Shown piece after piece: positions 3,884-59,067 of a stretch of 64,000 nucleotides of DNA. The position numbers and the translations under genes were made by a program. The notes beneath the pieces were generated by a model. That model saw only the letters and a program-made list of their open reading frames with translations, searched no databases and was not told the DNA's origin. This DNA comes from Candidatus Methanomethylophilaceae archaeon. GTDB lineage: Archaea; Thermoplasmatota; Thermoplasmata; Methanomassiliicoccales; Methanomethylophilaceae. Location: assembly GCA_050950505.1 (NCBI GenBank), contig JBMNHS010000001.1, positions 320,001 to 384,000 of the forward strand, given 5' to 3'. Position 1 is the first letter of the stretch; every line of letters begins with the position of its first letter.

Positions 3884-5737
3884 TCAGTTCTCTTCGTCGT
3901 CGACTATGGTGTAATCCGCATCAACGACGTCGTCGTCAACGTCCTCTTGGGCTTTCTGCTCCGCTCCGCCGTGAGCCTGCTGCCCGGCAGAAGCTTCCTG
4001 GTAAATCCTGGTGGAGATGGGTTCCATGGCCTTCATGAGGTCGTCCATCTTCTTCTTGATGCGTTCTGTGTCATCGGTCTTGTTGGCTTCCTCAAGGTCG
4101 GTGATTGCGGCTTCGACGGCGGATCTCTCTTCCTGGGATACTTTCTCCCCCAGTTCGTCAAGGGACTTGCGGACCATGTGCACCGAAGATTCGGCCTGGT
4201 TGTGGGTCTCGATGACTTCCACCTTCTTCTTGTCCGCATCGGCGAACTTCTCGGCTTCCTTGACCATCTGTTCGATCTCTTCGTCACTGAGTTTGCTGGA
4301 AGAGGCGATGGTGATTTTCTGTTCCTTGCCGGTTCCGGTGTCCTTCGCGGTCACGGTGACGATACCGTTGGCGTCGATGTCGAAGGTTACTTCAATCTGA
4401 GGCATTCCGCGGGGGGCCGGGGGTATTCCGTCAAGGATGAAACGGCCGAGGGAGGTGTTGTCCGTGGCCATCTTCCTTTCGCCCTGCACAACGTTGATTT
4501 CCACCGAAGGCTGGTTGTCCGCCGCGGTGGAGAATATCTGGGACTTCTTCGTAGGGATGGTGGTGTTTCTCTCAATGAGAGGGGTCGCCACTCCGCCGAG
4601 GGTTTCGATACCCAGAGTCAGAGGCGTAACGTCCAAAAGAAGAACGTCTTTCACGTCTCCGGAAAGAACGGCTCCCTGAATCGCCGCACCCATGGAAACA
4701 CATTCCATCGGGTCGATTCCGCGCTGAATCTTGGGGCCGACGACGCTTTCCACGTAGTTCTGGACCGCGGGCATTCTGGTCGGACCTCCGACCATGATGA
4801 TTTTGTCAATCTGGTCCATGGACAGTTTGGCGTCCTTGACGGCGCCCAGGATGCTGTCCTTGCATCTTACGATGACCGGTTCGACGAGTTCCTCAAGCTT
4901 TGCGCGGGTAAGTGTCTGCACAAGGTGCTTGGGTCCAGAATCGTCGGAAGCAATGAAGGGAAGGTTGATTTCCGTCTGCATCGTGGTAGAAAGTTCTATT
5001 TTGGCTTTCTCGCAGGCTTCCCGGACTCTCCAGAAGGCCATCTTGTCTCCGGTGAGATCGATGCCGGTCTGTTTCTTGAATTCGTCGGTAACGAACTTGG
5101 TGATGTTCTCATCCATGTCCGAACCTCCGAGCTGGGTGTCTCCCTTGGTGGAGAGAACTTCGAAAACACCGTCGCTGAGGTCCATTACCGTAACGTCCAG
5201 AGTGCCGCCTCCGAAGTCGAAAACCATGATTTTCTGTTCGGTGTCGCTCTTATCGAGACCGAATGCGAGAGCCGCGGATGTGGGCTCGTTTATCATGCGC
5301 ACGACGTCGAGTCCGGCAATCGCGCCGGCGTCTTTGGTCGCCTGTCTCTGGTTGTCGTCGAAGTATGCGGGGACGGTTATCACAGCTTTGCTGAGATCCT
5401 CGCCGAGGAAGGCTTCCGCGTCCCTCTTGATTTTCTGAAGTATGAATGCAGAGATCTGCTGCGGGGAGTATTCCTTTCCGAACACCGTGATTTTTTCGCC
5501 GGAGCCCATCTTTCTCTTTACGTTCTTTATGGTTCCTTCGGGGTTGGTCACGGCCTGTCTCCTTGCAGGCTCTCCCACCAAAAGCTCTCCGTCCTTCGTG
5601 AACGCCACGTAAGACGGGAACGATTTGCCGCCGACGCTGGTACCCTCGGCGCTGGGTATTACGATTGGCCTTCCGCCCTCCATCGCGGCGGCGGCCGAGT
5701 TGCTTGTTCCAAGATCTATACCTATAATTCTTGACAT
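3884..5737 (-). CDS. dnaK: Chaperone DnaK (Hsp70)
   Basis: [39 protein letters not shown] motifs. Confidence 0.99.
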
Positions 5738-5742
5738 TTCTT

Positions 5743-6303
5743 TCACTCCTGTTTGTTTTCTTTCGCCGTCTCTCCGGCCGTCCCCTCCGTTTCGGAGGAT
5801 TTAGTTACTTTCACTTTCGAATATCTCAGGACCCTGTCGTCGCAAAGGTATCCTTTCTGATACACTTCGGCAATGTCCCCGTCCCGTTCCCCGTCCACGG
5901 TGCTCAGGGCCTCATGGAACCCGGGATTGAATTTACCGTCTGTCGGAATCTCCTTGACTCCGCGTGTTTCCAGAGTCTTCATCAGATTCTGGCGCACGCC
6001 CCTGATACCGAGAATAAAATCGTTTTCTTCCTCGGCCAGGCACAATGCCCGGTCCAAATCGTCGATTGTCTGCAACAGTTCCGCAATCAGATCGTCGTTG
6101 GCTCTTTTCTTGGCATCTTCCATGTCTTTGACGGATCTCTTTCTGTAGTTGTCAAAATCCGCCTGGATTCTTCTAGCCGCATCCAGATACTGTCCGGCCA
6201 GTTCTTTGGCTTCTTCGAGCTCGTCCTTTATTTCGAATTTCTCTTCGGTTTCCGGTGATTCCGTTTCTTCCGGTCCGGCTTTCTTTCTAAACTTGTCAGT
6301 CAT
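5743..6303 (-). CDS. grpE: Nucleotide exchange factor GrpE
   Basis: [28 protein letters not shown] motifs; directly upstream of dnaK. Confidence 0.96.
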
Positions 6304-6331
6304 GCTACGATCATCCAAAGGGGTAAGAATT

Positions 6332-6356
6332 AGGGAGGAAGCAATGCTTCCTCCCT
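6332..6356. terminator. Perfect 11-bp hairpin between thermosome and grpE (terminator or RNA-stability element)
   Basis: AGGGAGGAAGC-AAT-GCTTCCTCCCT. Confidence 0.5.
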
Positions 6357-6372
6357 TGTTTGGTTTACAGTT

Positions 6373-7992
6373 TCACTCATCCATATCCAAGTCGGACATG
6401 TCCATTTCCTGGGTGCTCGAAGATGCAATCACATCATCGATGCGCAGGATCATGACGGCAGTGTCGGTGGCGGCGTTGATTGCCTGTTTTCCAACCCTGT
6501 AGGGTTCCACAACATTGTTTTCGTACATGTCATCGACTATGCCGGTGAAGGGGTTGAGACCTGCGGTGATCTTACCCTCTTTGTGCTGTTTCCTCATTTC
6601 GATAAGGGTGTCGATGGGGTCGAGTCCGGCATTCTCGGCAAGTGTCGCGGGAATCACTTCCATGGCGGAGGCGTATGCTTCGAGAGCAATCTGTGCCCTT
6701 CCGCCGACGGATGATGCGTAATCCCTGAGGCGCATGGCGATTTCCATTTCTTTGGATCCGCCGCCGCATTCGATGAGGCCGTCTTCGATGGCCACTCTTA
6801 CCGCGGACCATGCGTCGACGAGGGATCTTTCGACTTCGTCCGCCACGTGAACGGTTCCGCCTCTCACGAGAACGGATACGGTCTTCGGGTCTTTGACGTC
6901 GGTGATGAAGGTCATTTCTTCGTTCTCGACTTTCTTTAGCTCGACGAGTCCGGCGTTTCCGAGGTCGTCCTTGGAGATGTCCTGGATTTTGTTGACGATA
7001 GATGCACCGGTGGATCTGGACAGTCTGTCCATGTCGCTCTTCTTGACACGTCTGCATGCATAGATGCCTTCCTTGGCAAACATGTGCTGTGCCACGTCGT
7101 CGATTCCCTTCTGGCAGAATACGACGTTTGCACCGACATTCTTGACTGCGGTGACCATTCTCTTGAGCATGTTCTCCTCTTCCGCCACGAACTCGGCAAT
7201 CTGGTTGGGATCCGTTATCTGGATCTTTGCGTCCATTTCGGTCTTCTTGACTTCGAATGCCGCATCGATGAGCGCAATCTTTGCGTTCTTTATGGACTTG
7301 GGCATGCTGGGCTGAACCGGCTCTTTGTCGATTACGAGACCCTTGTGAAGTTCGGTCTCTTCCATTCTCGCACCGGCTTTCTTGACGGTCTGGATGTTGG
7401 TAAGATCGACTTTGTATTTTCCGTTCGCGTCCTTTTCGGCAACAGTCTTGACGGCGTCAACGACGAGTTCCGCAAAGAATTCTTTCGAACCGCTGACCTG
7501 TTTGCTGATCATTGCGACTTCGGCAACTTTTCTGAGAACGTCTTCGTCCTCGATGGTGACTTTCTTGGCGATGTCCAGGAGAACTTCCTGAGCCTTGTCG
7601 TTGGCCATCCTGTACCCGGCGGAGATAATCGTAGGGTGAACGTTGGCTTCGATCAAATCAACGGCTTTCTTCAGAAGTTCGCCGGTGAGTATGACGGAAG
7701 AAGTTGTTCCGTCACCGACTTCGGCGTCCTGCGCTTTTGCGACTTCCACCAGCATTTTTGCGGCGGGATGCTGAACGTCCATTTCCTTCAATATTGTCAC
7801 ACCGTCGTTGGTGATTACGACGTCGCCCAAAGAGTCAACGAGCATTTTGTCCATTCCCCTGGGGCCCAAGCTGCTTCTTACGGCATCGGCGATGGCCCTG
7901 GCGGCGGCAATGTTGTTGAACTGAGCATCTTTTCCTTTGTTTCTCTTTGTTCCTTCTCTGAGAATCAGAACAGGTGTGTTACCCATACCCAT
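6373..7992 (-). CDS. Thermosome subunit (group II chaperonin)
   Basis: [33 protein letters not shown] motifs. Confidence 0.98.
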
Positions 7993-53639: not shown

Positions 53640-53963
53640 GTGGATCGAGTGAAAACTGAAACAGGCGTGACCAGCGGAGCGTACAAGGAAATCGAGTTGA
53701 TAGAACGGCATATCCGAATGCTGTATGCCACGAAAATGAATCAGCCCGTGGGGATCATCCGTCTTTCGGAAATTCTGAATCTCCCCCGCCACAAGGTACG
53801 TTATTCACTGAGAATGCTGGAGAAAGACGGAGTCATCATCGCCACCCCGGAAGGGGCCGTCGTATCGGATCGTTATGAGGCATTCATGGAAGAAACCCAT
53901 GAGTATCTTACCCATCTGATTGAACGCATAAAGGCTGTCAAAGACCTCGTACCAGATACATAA
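53640..53963 (+). CDS. Winged-HTH transcriptional regulator
   Basis: ERHIRML...QPVGIIRLSE...HKVRYSLRMLE...TPEGA. Confidence 0.85.
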   Translation: MDRVKTETGVTSGAYKEIELIERHIRMLYATKMNQPVGIIRLSEILNLPRHKVRYSLRMLEKDGVIIATPEGAVVSDRYEAFMEETHEYLTHLIERIKAVKDLVPDT

Positions 53964-54376: not shown

Positions 54377-56314
54377 ATGATTGATATCAAATTTAAAGAA
54401 AGAAACAAAGTGCCCAGAATGCCGCGTATCGCAAAAGCCTTGACGCAGTGCGTGCAGTGCGGATATTGCATCGATGTCTGTGAAGCCCACGAAAGGACTC
54501 CGTGGGAATCCGTGACCGCCAGAGGCAAAATTTATTACCTTAACCAATTGGACAAGGTCGGATTCGGCCTTGTGGACAAAGCGCTCGGAAGGAAAATTTC
54601 CGTAAGCCCCGACTTCGTCGACGCGATGTACAAGTGCACGGGCTGCGGAAACTGCGAAGCCGTTTGCCACTCCAACATCCACCTCGTGGATCTCTGGGAA
54701 GACGTCAGGGCCTGGCTTGTCCAGTACGGATACGGACCCATGTCCGCCCACAAGGCCATGTACGAAAAAATCGAAACGGTCTACAATCCTTACGGCGAAG
54801 ATCCCCAGAAGAGGGACGCCTGGTGGCCCGAAGGGGTCGAAAAGACCGCGGTCCCCGATGTTCTTTTCTTTGCCGGATGCACCGGATCTTACAGAATGCA
54901 GGAACTCGCATCCGCGGGAGTCACGGTTCTTTCCAGAGCCGGAGTCACCGTGGGAACCATGGGCCCCGACGAGTGGTGCTGCACCTCTCCCATAATCAGG
55001 ACCGGAGCAAGAGGCCTGAGCCCCGAATTCTCCAGACACACCGTGGAAACCGCTGACGGCACCGGAGCCAAAGACATGGTCATGACCTGTTCCGGATGTT
55101 ACAAGACGATTCTGAACGACGCCGGCAAATATTACGCAAAGACCGGTCAGAACGTTTACCACTTCGCGCAGTACGTCGAGAAATTGATTTCCGACAGAAA
55201 ACTGCCCATGAACAACGAGTTCAACGTCAAAGCGACCTACCACGATCCCTGTCACCTCGGAAGGCACGCAGGGGTTTATGACGCCCCACGTAACGTCATC
55301 AAGAAAATCAAAGGTATCGATTTCGTCGAAATGTACCGCACCAGGGAATTGTCCAGATGCTGCGGCGCCGGCGGAGGATACAAAAGTCAGTACGGAGACA
55401 ACGCCGTCGCGATTGCCGGAGACAGAATCAGGGACGCCGAGGAAGTCGGTGCCGAACTTATCATCACGACCTGCCCCTTCTGTGTTCTGAACCTGAGGCA
55501 GGGCGCGAAGAAAATCGGATCTAAGATAAAGGTCATGGATTTGTCTGAAATTCTGCTTGCGGTCACCGGACCCAAGATTGAAAAGAAGCCCACGGCCGAG
55601 GAAGAAGCCGAAGACGTAAGAAAGATTCAGGCCGAAAAAGAGAAACTCCAGGCCGAACTGGAAGCCAAACTTGACGCGGTCAAACAGGCCGAACAGATCA
55701 AAGAAGAAAAGGTTGCCAAAATCAAAGCCGAAAGCGATATGGCAAAACTGAGAGCGGACAGACTCAAGGCTGAGGAAGAGGCCGCAAAACTGAGAGCGGA
55801 CAGACTCAAGGCTGAGGAAGAGGCCGTGAGAATCGATGCAGACATCCTCCCCCAAATCAGAGCGGAAGAGGAAGAGGCCGCAAGAATGGCTCTCGGAAAA
55901 GAAAAGGCTGAACCTGTCAAGGAAGAACCCAAGAAGGAAACTTCCGAAGACAAATCGGAACCGGACGATTGGACCGCAAATGAAACCGATGAGGTTTACA
56001 TAGACGACTACACCGATTACAGCCCCGAAGCCATGGTCAGAAGGGCCGCTTGGAACAAGGGTCTCAGATGCAGAAGGGACTACGGTCCGGACAAGATTCC
56101 GGTGGCTTTCGTCGGGGGAAAGGTCGCGGTGTTCGTGGAACCCGCAGATGCGGACAGGACTCTGGACAACAAGCTCATATCCAAAGGTTGGACCGTCCTC
56201 AGATACGATGAGAACGATGTCACCGACGGTTTGAAAGAAGGCGATGAAATCGATGAGGCCGTCAAGGAGAATCTCAAAACCAAGAAACGCGCCCGCAAGA
56301 GCCGCAAGAAGTAA
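54377..56314 (+). CDS. hdrD: HdrD-like heterodisulfide reductase (Fe-S/CCG) protein with C-terminal coiled coil and Vsr-like domain
   Basis: CVQCGYCIDVC and CTGCGNCEAVC [4Fe-4S] motifs; FFAGC, EWCC, TCSGC, YHDPCHLGR, CCGAGGG, TCPFC CCG-domain motifs. Confidence 0.85.
   Translation: MIDIKFKERNKVPRMPRIAKALTQCVQCGYCIDVCEAHERTPWESVTARGKIYYLNQLDKVGFGLVDKALGRKISVSPDFVDAMYKCTGCGNCEAVCHSNIHLVDLWEDVRAWLVQYGYGPMSAHKAMYEKIETVYNPYGEDPQKRDAWWPEGVEKTAVPDVLFFAGCTGSYRMQELASAGVTVLSRAGVTVGTMGPDEWCCTSPIIRTGARGLSPEFSRHTVETADGTGAKDMVMTCSGCYKTILNDAGKYYAKTGQNVYHFAQYVEKLISDRKLPMNNEFNVKATYHDPCHLGRHAGVYDAPRNVIKKIKGIDFVEMYRTRELSRCCGAGGGYKSQYGDNAVAIAGDRIRDAEEVGAELIITTCPFCVLNLRQGAKKIGSKIKVMDLSEILLAVTGPKIEKKPTAEEEAEDVRKIQAEKEKLQAELEAKLDAVKQAEQIKEEKVAKIKAESDMAKLRADRLKAEEEAAKLRADRLKAEEEAVRIDADILPQIRAEEEEAARMALGKEKAEPVKEEPKKETSEDKSEPDDWTANETDEVYIDDYTDYSPEAMVRRAAWNKGLRCRRDYGPDKIPVAFVGGKVAVFVEPADADRTLDNKLISKGWTVLRYDENDVTDGLKEGDEIDEAVKENLKTKKRARKSRKK
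55742..55825 (+). repeat. Exact 2 x 42-bp in-frame tandem duplication (AKLRADRLKAEEEA)
   Basis: GCAAAACTGAGAGCGGACAGACTCAAGGCTGAGGAAGAGGCC occurs twice in tandem. Confidence 0.95.
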
Positions 56315-56331: not shown

Positions 56332-59067
56332 ATGTCCTTTGAAACGCTGAGCCCCTGGCTTACGGACATACTTCACAAAAGGGGCATCCATGAACCTACC
56401 GAACCTCAAGCAGACGCCATCCCGAAAATATCCGCCGGTCAGAACGTTCTGCTGATAGCCCCCACCGGCATAGGAAAAACCGAAGCCGCAATCCTGCCGA
56501 TATTGGACGAAATCCACAAAAGCGGCGGGGAAGGGTTTCAGTGCCTGTACATCACGCCCCTGAGGGCGCTGAACCGGGACATGCTGAAAAGAATCCAGGA
56601 ATACGGGGAAGAATCCGGAATTTCCGTCGGCGTGAGACACGGGGACACGTCTCAGAGCGAACGTACCGCCCAATCCAAGAAACCGCCGAAGATACTGATC
56701 ACCACCCCGGAGACGGTACAGGTTCTTTTCACCGGAAAGGTTCTGAGGGAACATCTCAAAAACATCCGCTGGGTCGTCGTGGACGAGATTCACGAACTTG
56801 CGGACAACGAACGCGGGGCACAACTGAGCGTCGCGTTGGAACGTCTGGCGGCTCACGGCGGAGAGTTTCAGAGAATCGGACTGTCCGCCACCGTCGGAAA
56901 CGCCGAGCATGTCAAAAATTTCCTGGCCGGGGTCGGACGAAAAGTTACCGTCTGCAGACACGACACCCATCGGGATTACGACATAACCGTGGAAAGTCCG
57001 TTGCCGGAAAACAACCCCGTGCTGTTGGACAGACTGCAGACGGATCCGGACATGATGGGGGTCATGGTGCACGGACGCCGTCTCATCGAAGAAGGAAAAT
57101 CCACGTTATTTTTCGTGAACACCCGAGAGACGGCGGAATGGCTGGCGGCGAGATACCGCCTTTGGGACGAGGATTTTTCCATTGACGTCCATCACGGATC
57201 CCTTTCCAAAGAAACAAGAATGGAAATGGAGGACCGTTTCAAAAACGGAAATCTCAAATCCCTTCTGTGCACCTCCTCGTTGGAATTGGGAATCGACGTG
57301 GGAAGCACGGATTTGGTGATACAGTTCAACTCCCCCCGTCAGGTTTCGAGAATGATTCAACGGGCGGGACGGGCGGGGCACCGCATCGGCGAACTCATCA
57401 AAGCAAGGATACTCGCGGTGGCCCCCGACGAAGTGGCGGAAGCCATGGTCATCGCCAGAAAATGCGAAGACCGGGAAACGGAAAGTCTTGAAGGACGGGC
57501 CTGTCCTCTCACCGTGGTCGCCAATCAGCTGATTGCGATGACCATGTCCGGCCGCGTCACCAGAGACGACGCTTTCGGGATTTTCAGAAAATCCCACTTT
57601 TTCAAAGACCTTGAAAGATCGGAAATGGACGAAGTGATCGAACAGCTGAAATCCATCAAGATTCTTTTCGAGGACGAAGAAGGGTTCAGACGCTCAAGGA
57701 GAGGAATGAATTATTTCTACGGAAACATTTCGATGATTCCCGACGAACGGTTCTATTGGATCCGCGATATCGGCACCCGTTCGGTAATAGGCACATTGGA
57801 CGAAAGTTTCGTGGCCACTTTTGCCGAAGAATATGCCATGTTCATCGCCAAAGGACGGACCTGGCGAATAATCGAGATGCGGGAAGAGGAAATTCTCGTT
57901 GAAGAAGCCCGGGAAATCGGTTCGGTTCCGTCGTGGACCGGTTCGGACATCCCGGTTCCCTATGAAGTCGCCATGGAAGTCGGCCGGATGCGCCGCATGA
58001 GAAACTACAACGACTATCCTTGTGATGCGCAAAGCAGGAAGGTCGTCGATGATTTCCTGAATTCCCAGGGGGATCAGGTTTTGCCCACTGACAAAATCAT
58101 AACCTTGGAAACGGGAGACCGTCTAGCAATCGTAAACTGCTGTTTCGGAACCAAGGTAAACGAGACCCTCAGCAAAATCATATCCGCGCTCCTCACCGCA
58201 AGATTCGGGGAAAGCGTGGGAGTCTCCACGGACCCGTACAGAATAATAATGGAACTTCCCAGAAACATCGGCAGGGAGGATCTGGAAAGCACTTTTGCGC
58301 TGATACGCCCGGGGACCGTCGAAGATCTCTGCAGAAAAACGATTCTGAATTCCACGTTTCTGAAATGGCGTTTTGTCTATGTCGCAAAAAAATTCGGCAT
58401 AATCGAAAAGGATGCGGACCACCGTTTCATGAATTTCAACAGACTGTTCGAAATGCACAAGGACACCCCCGCGTACAGAGAGGCGGTGAACAAAGTCCTT
58501 TGGGACGATCTGGACATACCCAACACGGAAAGGGTGCTTTCCAGGATTGCCGACGGAGAAATCGAAATCGTCTCGGGAAGAGTCGCCCCCGTGGGATTGG
58601 AGGGGGTCACCCGTTCCAAAGAACTGATGCAGCCGGTCAGAGCCAGTCATGCCATTCTCATGGCCATGAAAAAGAGGATAGACGACGAAGTCGTCTACGC
58701 CACCTGTATGAGTTGTGCCACCCAGAGAAGGCTCCGGGTGGGAGACGCCCCGAAAAAACTGAAATGCCCGAACTGCGGAAGCATCATGATTGCGGTGCTG
58801 AAAAGTTACGAAAGAGAGAACGCCAAACTTCTCGGAAAGGACAAGTTGACGCCCCATGAGAAAAAGGATCTTCAAAGAATGTCCAAGAATGCCAATCTTG
58901 TCATGGGCGACGGCAAACGCGCGGTGTTCGCCCTCGCGGGAAGAGGCATCGGACCGGACAGTGCCGCAAGACTGCTGAGAGGAATATTCGTGGACGAGGA
59001 TGATTTTCTCAGAGGAATCATGGCCGCCGAAGTTCAATATGCGAAAACCAAAAGGTTCTGGGACTGA
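56332..59067 (+). CDS. lhr: Lhr-family SF2 helicase with C-terminal Cys motif
   Basis: APTGIGKT, PLRALNRD, TTPE, DEIH, LSAT, HHGSLS, SSLELGID, QRAGRAGH, MIPD; CxxC...CPNC. Confidence 0.95.
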   Translation: MSFETLSPWLTDILHKRGIHEPTEPQADAIPKISAGQNVLLIAPTGIGKTEAAILPILDEIHKSGGEGFQCLYITPLRALNRDMLKRIQEYGEESGISVGVRHGDTSQSERTAQSKKPPKILITTPETVQVLFTGKVLREHLKNIRWVVVDEIHELADNERGAQLSVALERLAAHGGEFQRIGLSATVGNAEHVKNFLAGVGRKVTVCRHDTHRDYDITVESPLPENNPVLLDRLQTDPDMMGVMVHGRRLIEEGKSTLFFVNTRETAEWLAARYRLWDEDFSIDVHHGSLSKETRMEMEDRFKNGNLKSLLCTSSLELGIDVGSTDLVIQFNSPRQVSRMIQRAGRAGHRIGELIKARILAVAPDEVAEAMVIARKCEDRETESLEGRACPLTVVANQLIAMTMSGRVTRDDAFGIFRKSHFFKDLERSEMDEVIEQLKSIKILFEDEEGFRRSRRGMNYFYGNISMIPDERFYWIRDIGTRSVIGTLDESFVATFAEEYAMFIAKGRTWRIIEMREEEILVEEAREIGSVPSWTGSDIPVPYEVAMEVGRMRRMRNYNDYPCDAQSRKVVDDFLNSQGDQVLPTDKIITLETGDRLAIVNCCFGTKVNETLSKIISALLTARFGESVGVSTDPYRIIMELPRNIGREDLESTFALIRPGTVEDLCRKTILNSTFLKWRFVYVAKKFGIIEKDADHRFMNFNRLFEMHKDTPAYREAVNKVLWDDLDIPNTERVLSRIADGEIEIVSGRVAPVGLEGVTRSKELMQPVRASHAILMAMKKRIDDEVVYATCMSCATQRRLRVGDAPKKLKCPNCGSIMIAVLKSYERENAKLLGKDKLTPHEKKDLQRMSKNANLVMGDGKRAVFALAGRGIGPDSAARLLRGIFVDEDDFLRGIMAAEVQYAKTKRFWD

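Follow-up and report, generated by a model that had tools for sequence, protein, structure and literature searches.

A Vsr-derived, predicted non-catalytic domain at the end of HdrD and of a membrane protein in Methanomethylophilaceae

Introduction

Why should a heterodisulfide reductase end in something that resembles a repair nuclease? The question is raised by an open reading frame (ORF) in a 64,000-nucleotide stretch of the genome of a Candidatus Methanomethylophilaceae archaeon (contig JBMNHS010000001.1, positions 320,001 to 384,000), which as a whole we call the window. In one uninterrupted frame, this ORF joins an HdrD-type module to a long spacer, a small nuclease-like domain and a basic tail. 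In the order Methanomassiliicoccales HdrE is lacking and HdrD is thought to work with an Fpo-like complex (PMC4153887, PMC7374477, PMC10804542), and direct contact between the two has been assumed because HdrE is absent (PMC7374477, PMC10804542, PMC4153887). Our preferred answer, to which we assign a probability of roughly 0.4, is that the domain is a non-catalytic, putative binding module: it would keep its carriers on a tether to some polyanion present throughout the cell, probably the nucleoid. The parts of the ORF, all on the plus strand, are as follows.

54377..56314, plus strand: whole ORF of 645 amino acids (aa), comprising HdrD-type module, spacer, Vsr-derived domain, basic tail and stop in one uninterrupted frame
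54377..55573, plus strand: HdrD-type catalytic module, aa 1-399, with two [4Fe-4S] motifs (C25..C35 and C87..C97) and two CCG modules
55574..55996, plus strand: low-complexity spacer, aa 400-540 (141 aa), rich in E, A and K by composition, net charge -13
55742-55826, plus strand: tandem duplication of a 42-bp unit (x 2.0, perfect; 14 aa per copy) within the spacer
56009..56281, plus strand: Vsr-derived, predicted catalytically dead domain, aa 545-635 (about 91 aa), delimited by hhalign, HMM search, ESM Atlas neighbours and the column table
56282..56311, plus strand: basic tail KKRARKSRKK, aa 636-645
56312-56314, plus strand: stop codon of the hdrD ORF

Descent of the C-terminal domain

To which family does the domain belong? 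Taken singly, the window's copy misses the gathering cut-off of DUF559 (PF04480; 14.4 bits against 20.6, E 0.036) and the cut-off of TIGR00632 for vsr (15.9 bits against 97.85), has no match to PF03852, and found nothing meaningful in a single-sequence search of PDB sequences (best E 0.93). Profiles were built from an alignment of 55 domain copies from related genomes (A1) and from a reference set of 14 Vsr proteins that PF03852 had picked out within the phylum (in 13 of 151 genomes). hhalign joined the A1 profile to the Vsr set with a probability of 99.1% (E 4.7e-19, 84 columns) and a single gap of about 29 columns, where Vsr reads GCFWHGC...FW..K..RN. An HMM search with A1 against 1.84 billion representative proteins gave 409 matches at E<=1e-3, of which 103 reached <=1e-10 and 75 reached <=1e-30; among 14 weaker matches that were scanned, 10 carry Pfam Vsr above its cut-off, and the other four are a DUF559/MTES_1575 protein, a divergent member of the family, an HdrD fragment and a spurious repeat protein. 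When the 55 copies were scanned singly at E<=0.01, 11 matched DUF559 (best 4e-5) and nine matched Vsr, the window's copy matching neither.

The top solved-structure match of the A1 profile, a weak one, is the nuclease domain of I-Bth0305I (3r3p; E 0.087, profile positions 6-85). The ESM Atlas contains a model of the window protein, and residues 541-645 of it have as neighbours members of the same family (TM 0.86-0.98, by query), Vsr clusters (0.74-0.82) and DUF559 clusters (0.76-0.79). By these comparisons the domain descends from a Vsr endonuclease, the likeness being far beyond chance and at profile level only, and the degenerate Vsr/DUF559-type domain proposed in the preliminary description of this locus was thus borne out by hhalign, the HMM search and the ESM Atlas neighbours.

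Vsr and the domain share the core T-x-P-E ... LRRxLW.xG.RYR ... KVAVFV ... L...GW.VLR; the domain differs in being fused to the C-terminus of unrelated carriers, in its Lys-rich tail and in scoring under the family cut-offs. DUF559 and REase_MTES_1575 belong to the same superfamily, but their acidic active-site residues are absent from the window's domain type. The Vsr-like domain of I-Bth0305I is likewise short and lacks the zinc motif (PMC3239194), but it retains the EDxHD catalytic residues and cuts DNA. The relatives of the closest active Vsr subtype (motif YG..KID[VI]AF, e.g. P0198) are scattered across DPANN archaea and a wide range of bacteria, and so point to no particular donor. One protein of 129 aa, P0223, scores above the Vsr cut-off, keeps FWH and has a much shortened following segment; complete Vsr and the form with the deletion are thus bridged by a naturally occurring intermediate. 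Active-type Vsr genes occur elsewhere in the window's genus, as on contig L051 (genome G046), where one 494-aa ORF, judged by sequence motifs, joins a true Vsr with a C5 cytosine methyltransferase-like region; in the window's own genome PF03852 found none at E<=1e-5.

Residues retained and lost

What has the domain kept of Vsr? In a column table built from the 55 copies and the Vsr set aligned together, 10 of 22 near-invariant Vsr columns are retained: E24 in 43 copies, R28 in 53, G35 in 45, R39 in 52, G47 in 52, A59 in 52, F61 (as F or Y) in 53, and L104, W109 and V111 (as V or I) in all 55. The column of the catalytic Asp, D50, holds P in 39 of the 55 copies, the window's among them, T in seven and D in four. 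The columns F66, W67, H68, W86 and K89 are deleted in every copy, and M13 of the N-terminal arm (54 gaps), P49 (I in 51), N93 and W115 are lost as well. The deleted segment of about 29 residues comprises the FWH/His, zinc and Trp-wedge residues of Vsr, whose N-terminal clamp is also absent from the domain. According to PMC3239194, Asp51 of Vsr holds the catalytic Mg and His69 is the likely general base, in a site to which His64 and Asp97 also belong; the residues that intercalate at the mismatch are Trp68 and Trp86, the helix 82-107 lies in the major groove, and the zinc motif sits in the loop that is deleted here.

On this table the core of the fold appears to be retained, and both the chemistry and the Vsr-type grip on DNA are gone with D50 and the His/zinc/Trp segment. 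The domain is therefore predicted to be catalytically dead and unable to act as a Vsr endonuclease. The preliminary description had noted that the catalytic Asp and the FWH His segment were missing, and this was confirmed column by column over the 55 copies; the non-catalytic binding or scaffold role that it put forward is a sensible reading of these missing parts. Its further suggestion, a coupling of the CoM-S-S-CoB redox state to DNA or RNA through the domain, is conceivable. The domain is also a charge dipole, with a net charge of +4/+5 in its first 40 residues and -5/-6 in the remainder, and it is conserved about as well as the enzyme core of HdrD (identity 58%, against 65-69%). We also observed divergent copies, on contig L032 (genome G146) and in P0213 and P0152, in which C-x-x-C (e.g. 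VCKAC or ICDAC) replaces the Arg-rich first helix.

Two carriers and their distribution

Is the domain peculiar to HdrD? Of 7999 candidates scored in a search with residues 400-645, 529 proteins reached E<=0.001, and among the 120 listed matches HdrD Pfam domains were present in 15 and absent in 105. The carriers without HdrD have in common an N-terminal membrane domain, with six hydropathy peaks in 84 of 92 and loop charges that fit both termini inside the cell. This six-transmembrane (six-TM) domain is followed by a long spacer, the same Vsr-derived domain (60-75% identity) and a Lys-rich tail. Of 176 classified carriers, 21 are HdrD forms and 155 are six-TM membrane forms; the domain is always C-terminal, behind a variable spacer and before a Lys-rich tail. 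Public databases name the carriers 'heterodisulfide reductase-related iron-sulfur binding cluster' or 'hypothetical protein', and Pfam assigns nothing to the domain. In the literature on HdrD and Methanomassiliicoccales and on Vsr-like inactive domains we found no description of the HdrD extension or of the domain family, subscription journals being mostly outside this coverage.

Some carriers bear the domain in multiple copies. In genus g13, HdrD proteins of 953-1092 aa (L031 in G138, L041 in G181 and L044 in G180) have four or five tandem copies, and contig L032 has three. The inner copies of the g13 arrays are more Vsr-like (LRRRLW.RGYRYR), and the last copy has an Asp at the catalytic position together with the Lys-rich tail. 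The spacers of membrane forms contain a motif of the type [ND]xF[ML]xKL[VM][AS]SxDA; a short conserved motif of the type NDFMSKLVSSKDA stands in the otherwise variable spacers of P0017, P0031, P0182 and P0188 and is absent from HdrD forms, and it may be a second binding site. An ESM Atlas search with the N-terminal 190 aa of the membrane protein had a best score of 0.76 and gave no lead. The gene for this protein lies away from hdrD: a divergent beta-CASP ribonuclease gene adjoins it, and TFS, PCNA and pentose-phosphate genes stand downstream of it. A further protein, P0129, is a 229-aa metagenome sequence in which a eukaryote-like SH3 domain is joined to the archaeal domain, most likely through a chimeric contig from a gut sample.

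The tree of the domain is short and weakly resolved, and its well-supported branches require the carrier to have changed at least twice: the HdrD copies of g1 group with membrane-type copies of g7 and g8 and not with other HdrD copies. Concerted evolution of the HdrD- and membrane-type copies within a genome was considered and rejected, identities within genomes (51-66%) being matched by the means across genomes (47-64%).

With the window's domain as query, a match was found in 59 of 63 genomes of its family and in none of 87 genomes from six other families of the order; matching public contigs are assigned to Candidatus Methanomethylophilaceae, Methanomethylophilus, Methanogranum, Methanoplasma and Methanarcanum. 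We then took a census of 91 family genomes at least 90% complete, combining the positions of HdrD cores and domains. The domain was on HdrD only in 20 genomes, on both carriers in 16, on the other carrier only in 46 (in five of which the HdrD place was not among the listed rows) and on none in nine. The HdrD fusion is thus present in 36 of the 91 genomes, spread over 10 of 14 genera. The window's own genome has the HdrD copy only, and no relative of the membrane protein was detectable there. Within the domain-bearing clade, at least one carrier is kept in 82 of 89 genomes, and each has been lost more than once; such repeated loss of carriers, with one nearly always kept, fits a function of the module rather than of the carrier. 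Losses of one or the other carrier among the lineages suggest that either is enough. Bins titled Bacteroides ovatus, Bifidobacteriaceae, Lachnospiraceae, Ruminococcus sp. and Eggerthellaceae (L117, L118, L123, L124 and L170) also hold the domain at 58-68% identity and are probably mislabelled or contaminated.

Might the domain be a protein-protein docking module? Its partner would then be the domain itself, whether by pairing of the HdrD and membrane copies or in homo-oligomers, or else the Fpo-like complex or another protein, and the domain would thereby place or cluster HdrD at the membrane and so partly replace the role of HdrE. Loss of the DNA-contact elements of Vsr with retention of a compact core is typical of enzyme folds reused for interaction; HdrD of this order has no HdrE and is assumed to touch the Fpo-like complex directly (PMC7374477, PMC10804542); the related nuclease domain of I-Bth0305I dimerises in solution (PMC3239194); both carriers coexist in 16 of the 91 genomes; and the repeated link of the domain with HdrD, through at least two carrier changes, argues for a tie to this enzyme. 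However, the genomes with a single carrier, 20 with the HdrD copy (the window's included) and 46 with the other, show that a heterotypic pair of HdrD and the membrane protein cannot be the general function; the two types of copy are no closer within a genome than across genomes; and the constant Lys-rich tail is left unexplained. Docking is the main rival to a polyanion tether, and we consider it possible but doubtful.

Distribution and chromatin proteins

What else distinguishes the genomes that bear the domain? Methanomethylophilaceae have been reported to be without every known nucleoid-associated or chromatin protein (bioRxiv 10.1101/2021.07.08.451601). In the window's genome we found no histone-fold, Alba, HU or MC1 match, while positive controls scored. 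Across the 151-genome sample, Alba was found in 60 of the 87 genomes that belong to other families of the order, against only two of the 63 from the window's family, G098 (g10) and G130 (g12), which represent the two genera without the domain. The family sample accordingly comprises 59 genomes with the domain and without Alba, two with Alba and without the domain, two with neither and none with both. The domain is a module specific to one clade of the Methanomethylophilaceae, and this clade coincides with the one that is without Alba and the other known chromatin proteins.

A tree of the helicase Lhr (17 rows, rooted on five genomes of four other families) places g10 and g12 together (100/100) as sister to the ten sampled domain-bearing genera (100/100, stem length 0.52), so that the domain was gained and Alba lost along the same long branch. 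A bolder form of the polyanion tether would be that the Vsr-derived domain and its Lys-rich tail are the missing nucleoid-handling system of the family, gripping the chromosome on acidic leashes from the six-TM carrier or from HdrD. We regard this bolder form as unlikely.

Spacer and basic tail

What lies between the carriers and the domain? The window's spacer consists of E (22.7%), A (17.0%) and K (15.6%) to more than half and has one run of 86 residues without Pro or Gly. The E/K/A-rich stretch that was first taken for a coiled-coil stalk is real, but such a stalk is not conserved: the spacers of orthologous HdrD carriers (n=21) range from 58 to 362 aa, with a median of 86, and are often rich in Pro, Ala, Val and Glu. 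In the membrane-protein carriers (n=155) they range from 16 to 572 aa, with a median of 325. HdrD forms have a net spacer charge per residue of -0.08 and membrane forms one of -0.18, and the spacer cannot be aligned across genera, whereas the domain is 58% identical. A protein from another assembly, P0002 (631 aa, 94% identical), has a single copy of the 42-bp repeat, which indicates that spacer length changes by gain and loss of repeats. Judged by composition and length, the spacer is probably a fast-evolving, flexible, long and mostly acidic linker. In one membrane-form carrier, 1161 aa long and on contig L037 (G076), the spacer takes up about 800 aa and is made of Ala/Glu/Lys/Gln-rich repeats with a coiled-coil-like look, which, if extended, would be a very long tether.

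The tails of the carriers have a median of six K/R and no D/E, and some are Ala/Lys repeats. Such tails might suggest a membrane-lipid anchor, in which the polybasic tail and the basic face of the domain lie on anionic lipids and hold HdrD near the membrane, where HdrD must be in order to serve the membrane-bound Fpo-like complex (PMC7374477). Yet most carriers are already integral membrane proteins, to which an anchor beyond a 325-aa spacer would add little; the short HdrD of g2 and g7 does without the domain; and a folded, strongly conserved domain of 90 aa exceeds what an anchor needs. We consider a lipid anchor quite improbable.

A proposed tether to a polyanion

How, then, might the module act? 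In the mechanism that we propose, the Arg-rich first helix and the Lys-rich tail would bind a polyanion, most likely nucleoid DNA (or RNA), and the module on its leash would link the nucleoid to membrane-associated carriers. The six-TM protein would be a direct link between nucleoid and membrane, and HdrD would be linked to the membrane through its presumed docking on the Fpo-like complex. The basic first 40 residues, the K/R-rich tails and the multivalent arrays are in favour of a polyanionic partner. The nearest precedent is the RAP domain of FASTKD4, a Vsr-like domain that binds RNA without cutting it; it differs in being eukaryotic and mitochondrial, in its positively charged Vsr-like cavity and in acting together with FAST motifs, and the likeness is one of description (PMC11879112).

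Several observations weigh against a polyanionic partner, and against the nucleoid in particular. Taken whole, the domain has a median net charge of -2 to 0, which makes it neutral to acidic, with a strongly negative second half and strongly acidic spacers before it. Exactly those parts with which Vsr holds DNA have been lost: its N-terminal clamp, its Trp wedge and the first half of its helix in the major groove (PMC3239194). Support for the fold comes from ESM Atlas models alone. In seven of the domain-bearing clade's 89 genomes no copy was seen; one of these is 99% complete and one has a weak partial match. The coincidence with the loss of Alba is a single event on one long stem branch, which many other traits must share. 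The membrane-protein gene stands among housekeeping genes that have no clear link to chromatin, and there is no known reason for an energy enzyme to sit on the nucleoid.

HdrD core and integrity of the fusion

Is the fusion itself sound? The stretch occurs in 20 public runs from 13 studies. Contigs of two DNA and two RNA-library runs (the latter being no proof of transcription) span the passage from core to spacer and that from spacer through the domain to lhr; they break only at the 42-bp repeat, contain no insertion or deletion within the ORF, and have no stop or frameshift between the modules. A stop codon between the modules, named in the preliminary description as what would speak against a fusion, was looked for in these read contigs and none was seen. 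Of 24 single-letter differences among the contigs, 21 are synonymous, as are four of the five within the domain. In one RNA-library contig (depth 4.2), A>T at window position 55010 turns R212 of the HdrD core into a stop, which may be an assembly error; the other three runs are without the change.

These data bear on whether the domain could be a decaying remnant, or an artefact of assembly or annotation, without function. The window's copy does score under every curated cut-off when taken as a single sequence, but the same architecture recurs in 10 of 14 genera and in contigs from 13 studies, the frame between the modules is intact, and the domain remains 58% identical across genera behind a spacer that cannot be aligned. 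We find a remnant or artefact scarcely credible.

The first 399 residues have the motifs of a complete HdrD module, as originally described. Two CX2CX2CX3C motifs start at C25 and C87, and the CCG modules have CC at 201 and 328 and CxxC at 238 and 366; the protein thus has the two CX2CX2CX3C and two CXnCCXnCX2C motifs by which HdrD is recognised. Pfam assigns CCG (E 7.4e-34, 116.2 bits, two stretches) and Fer4_8 (E 2.2e-09), with Fer4_8 and Fer4_17 both above their cut-offs, and the closest solved chains are HdrB subunits (E 1e-14 to 3e-11). The ORF reached no curated equivalog model, the top one being TfrB (215 bits against a cut-off of 385). From these motifs the gene is predicted to encode an intact HdrD-type heterodisulfide-reductase module with CoM-S-S-CoB reductase activity. 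It resembles HdrD of the HdrDE-type enzyme in its two [4Fe-4S] motifs and two CCG modules and differs from it in the C-terminal extension of 245 aa. The host is a methanogen with a genome of 1.33 Mb (99.6% completeness), in which McrA, a gene for the 49-kDa subunit of complex I (FpoD-like) and a second HdrD-like paralogue (367 aa, 38% identity) were found. A scan of the locus for bacterial-type promoters and terminators gave nothing above shuffled sequences. In genomes with the short form, many HdrD matches have one in-frame TGA (g7 and g10), and some matches in g5 have one TAG; these may be natural stops aligned through, or recoding.

The lhr neighbourhood

Was the domain captured from a neighbouring repair locus? 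Two conserved neighbours lie outside the module.

56332..59067, plus strand: lhr-type helicase gene (Pfam DEAD, Helicase_C, WH_Lhr and DEAD_assoc)
53640..53963, plus strand: small winged-helix protein with weak HTH matches, upstream of hdrD in three of six loci

The ATG of lhr at 56332 stands 17 nt past the hdrD stop; this gap to the co-oriented lhr, the C-terminal sequence and the KKRARKSRKK tail are as first described. lhr follows hdrD in all six related loci compared, with or without the domain. In g7 and g2 HdrD is short and ends right after the core, about 70-100 nt before lhr. In g10 and g12 HdrD has 388 aa, and a ClC-type channel gene with a glycosyltransferase gene, or fragments of the channel gene, stand between hdrD and lhr. 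The fragments, on L064 at 5600-6500 (G130), are of a gene that is intact in G098 (L063) and look like a decaying gene. No free vsr-like gene was found between hdrD and lhr in the six loci.

Since hdrD and lhr adjoin also where HdrD is short and in genera without the domain, their order is older than the extension and independent of it. The first reading of the locus, in which a repair gene next to lhr was captured by fusion, did not hold: adjacency is shared by the short HdrD of g7 and g2 (and, with inserts, by g10 and g12), the six loci contain no free vsr-like gene between the two, and 155 of 176 carriers are a membrane protein encoded elsewhere. By the same observations, a working or regulatory DNA-repair element tied to lhr has little to commend it. 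Descent from a repair nuclease, the 17-nt distance and the conserved adjacency would suit such an element, but most copies of the domain are encoded far from lhr, and the catalytic Asp and both His positions are lost; we rate it as very improbable.

Implications

Its occurrence on the membrane protein as well makes the module an unannotated domain family that numbers hundreds of members. The module also provides a natural example of how a nuclease fold would have become a non-catalytic module through one deletion and a few substitutions. The placement and wiring of HdrD in Methanomassiliicoccales, which have no HdrE, is a question in the energy metabolism of gut and rumen methanogens, and a lineage-specific module at the end of HdrD offers a concrete handle on it. 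The module is also a candidate for the organisation or anchoring of DNA in a clade that has lost Alba and the other known chromatin proteins. If the tether to the nucleoid is true, the nucleoid of these archaea would be physically coupled to the energy-conserving membrane by a nuclease fold without its blade.

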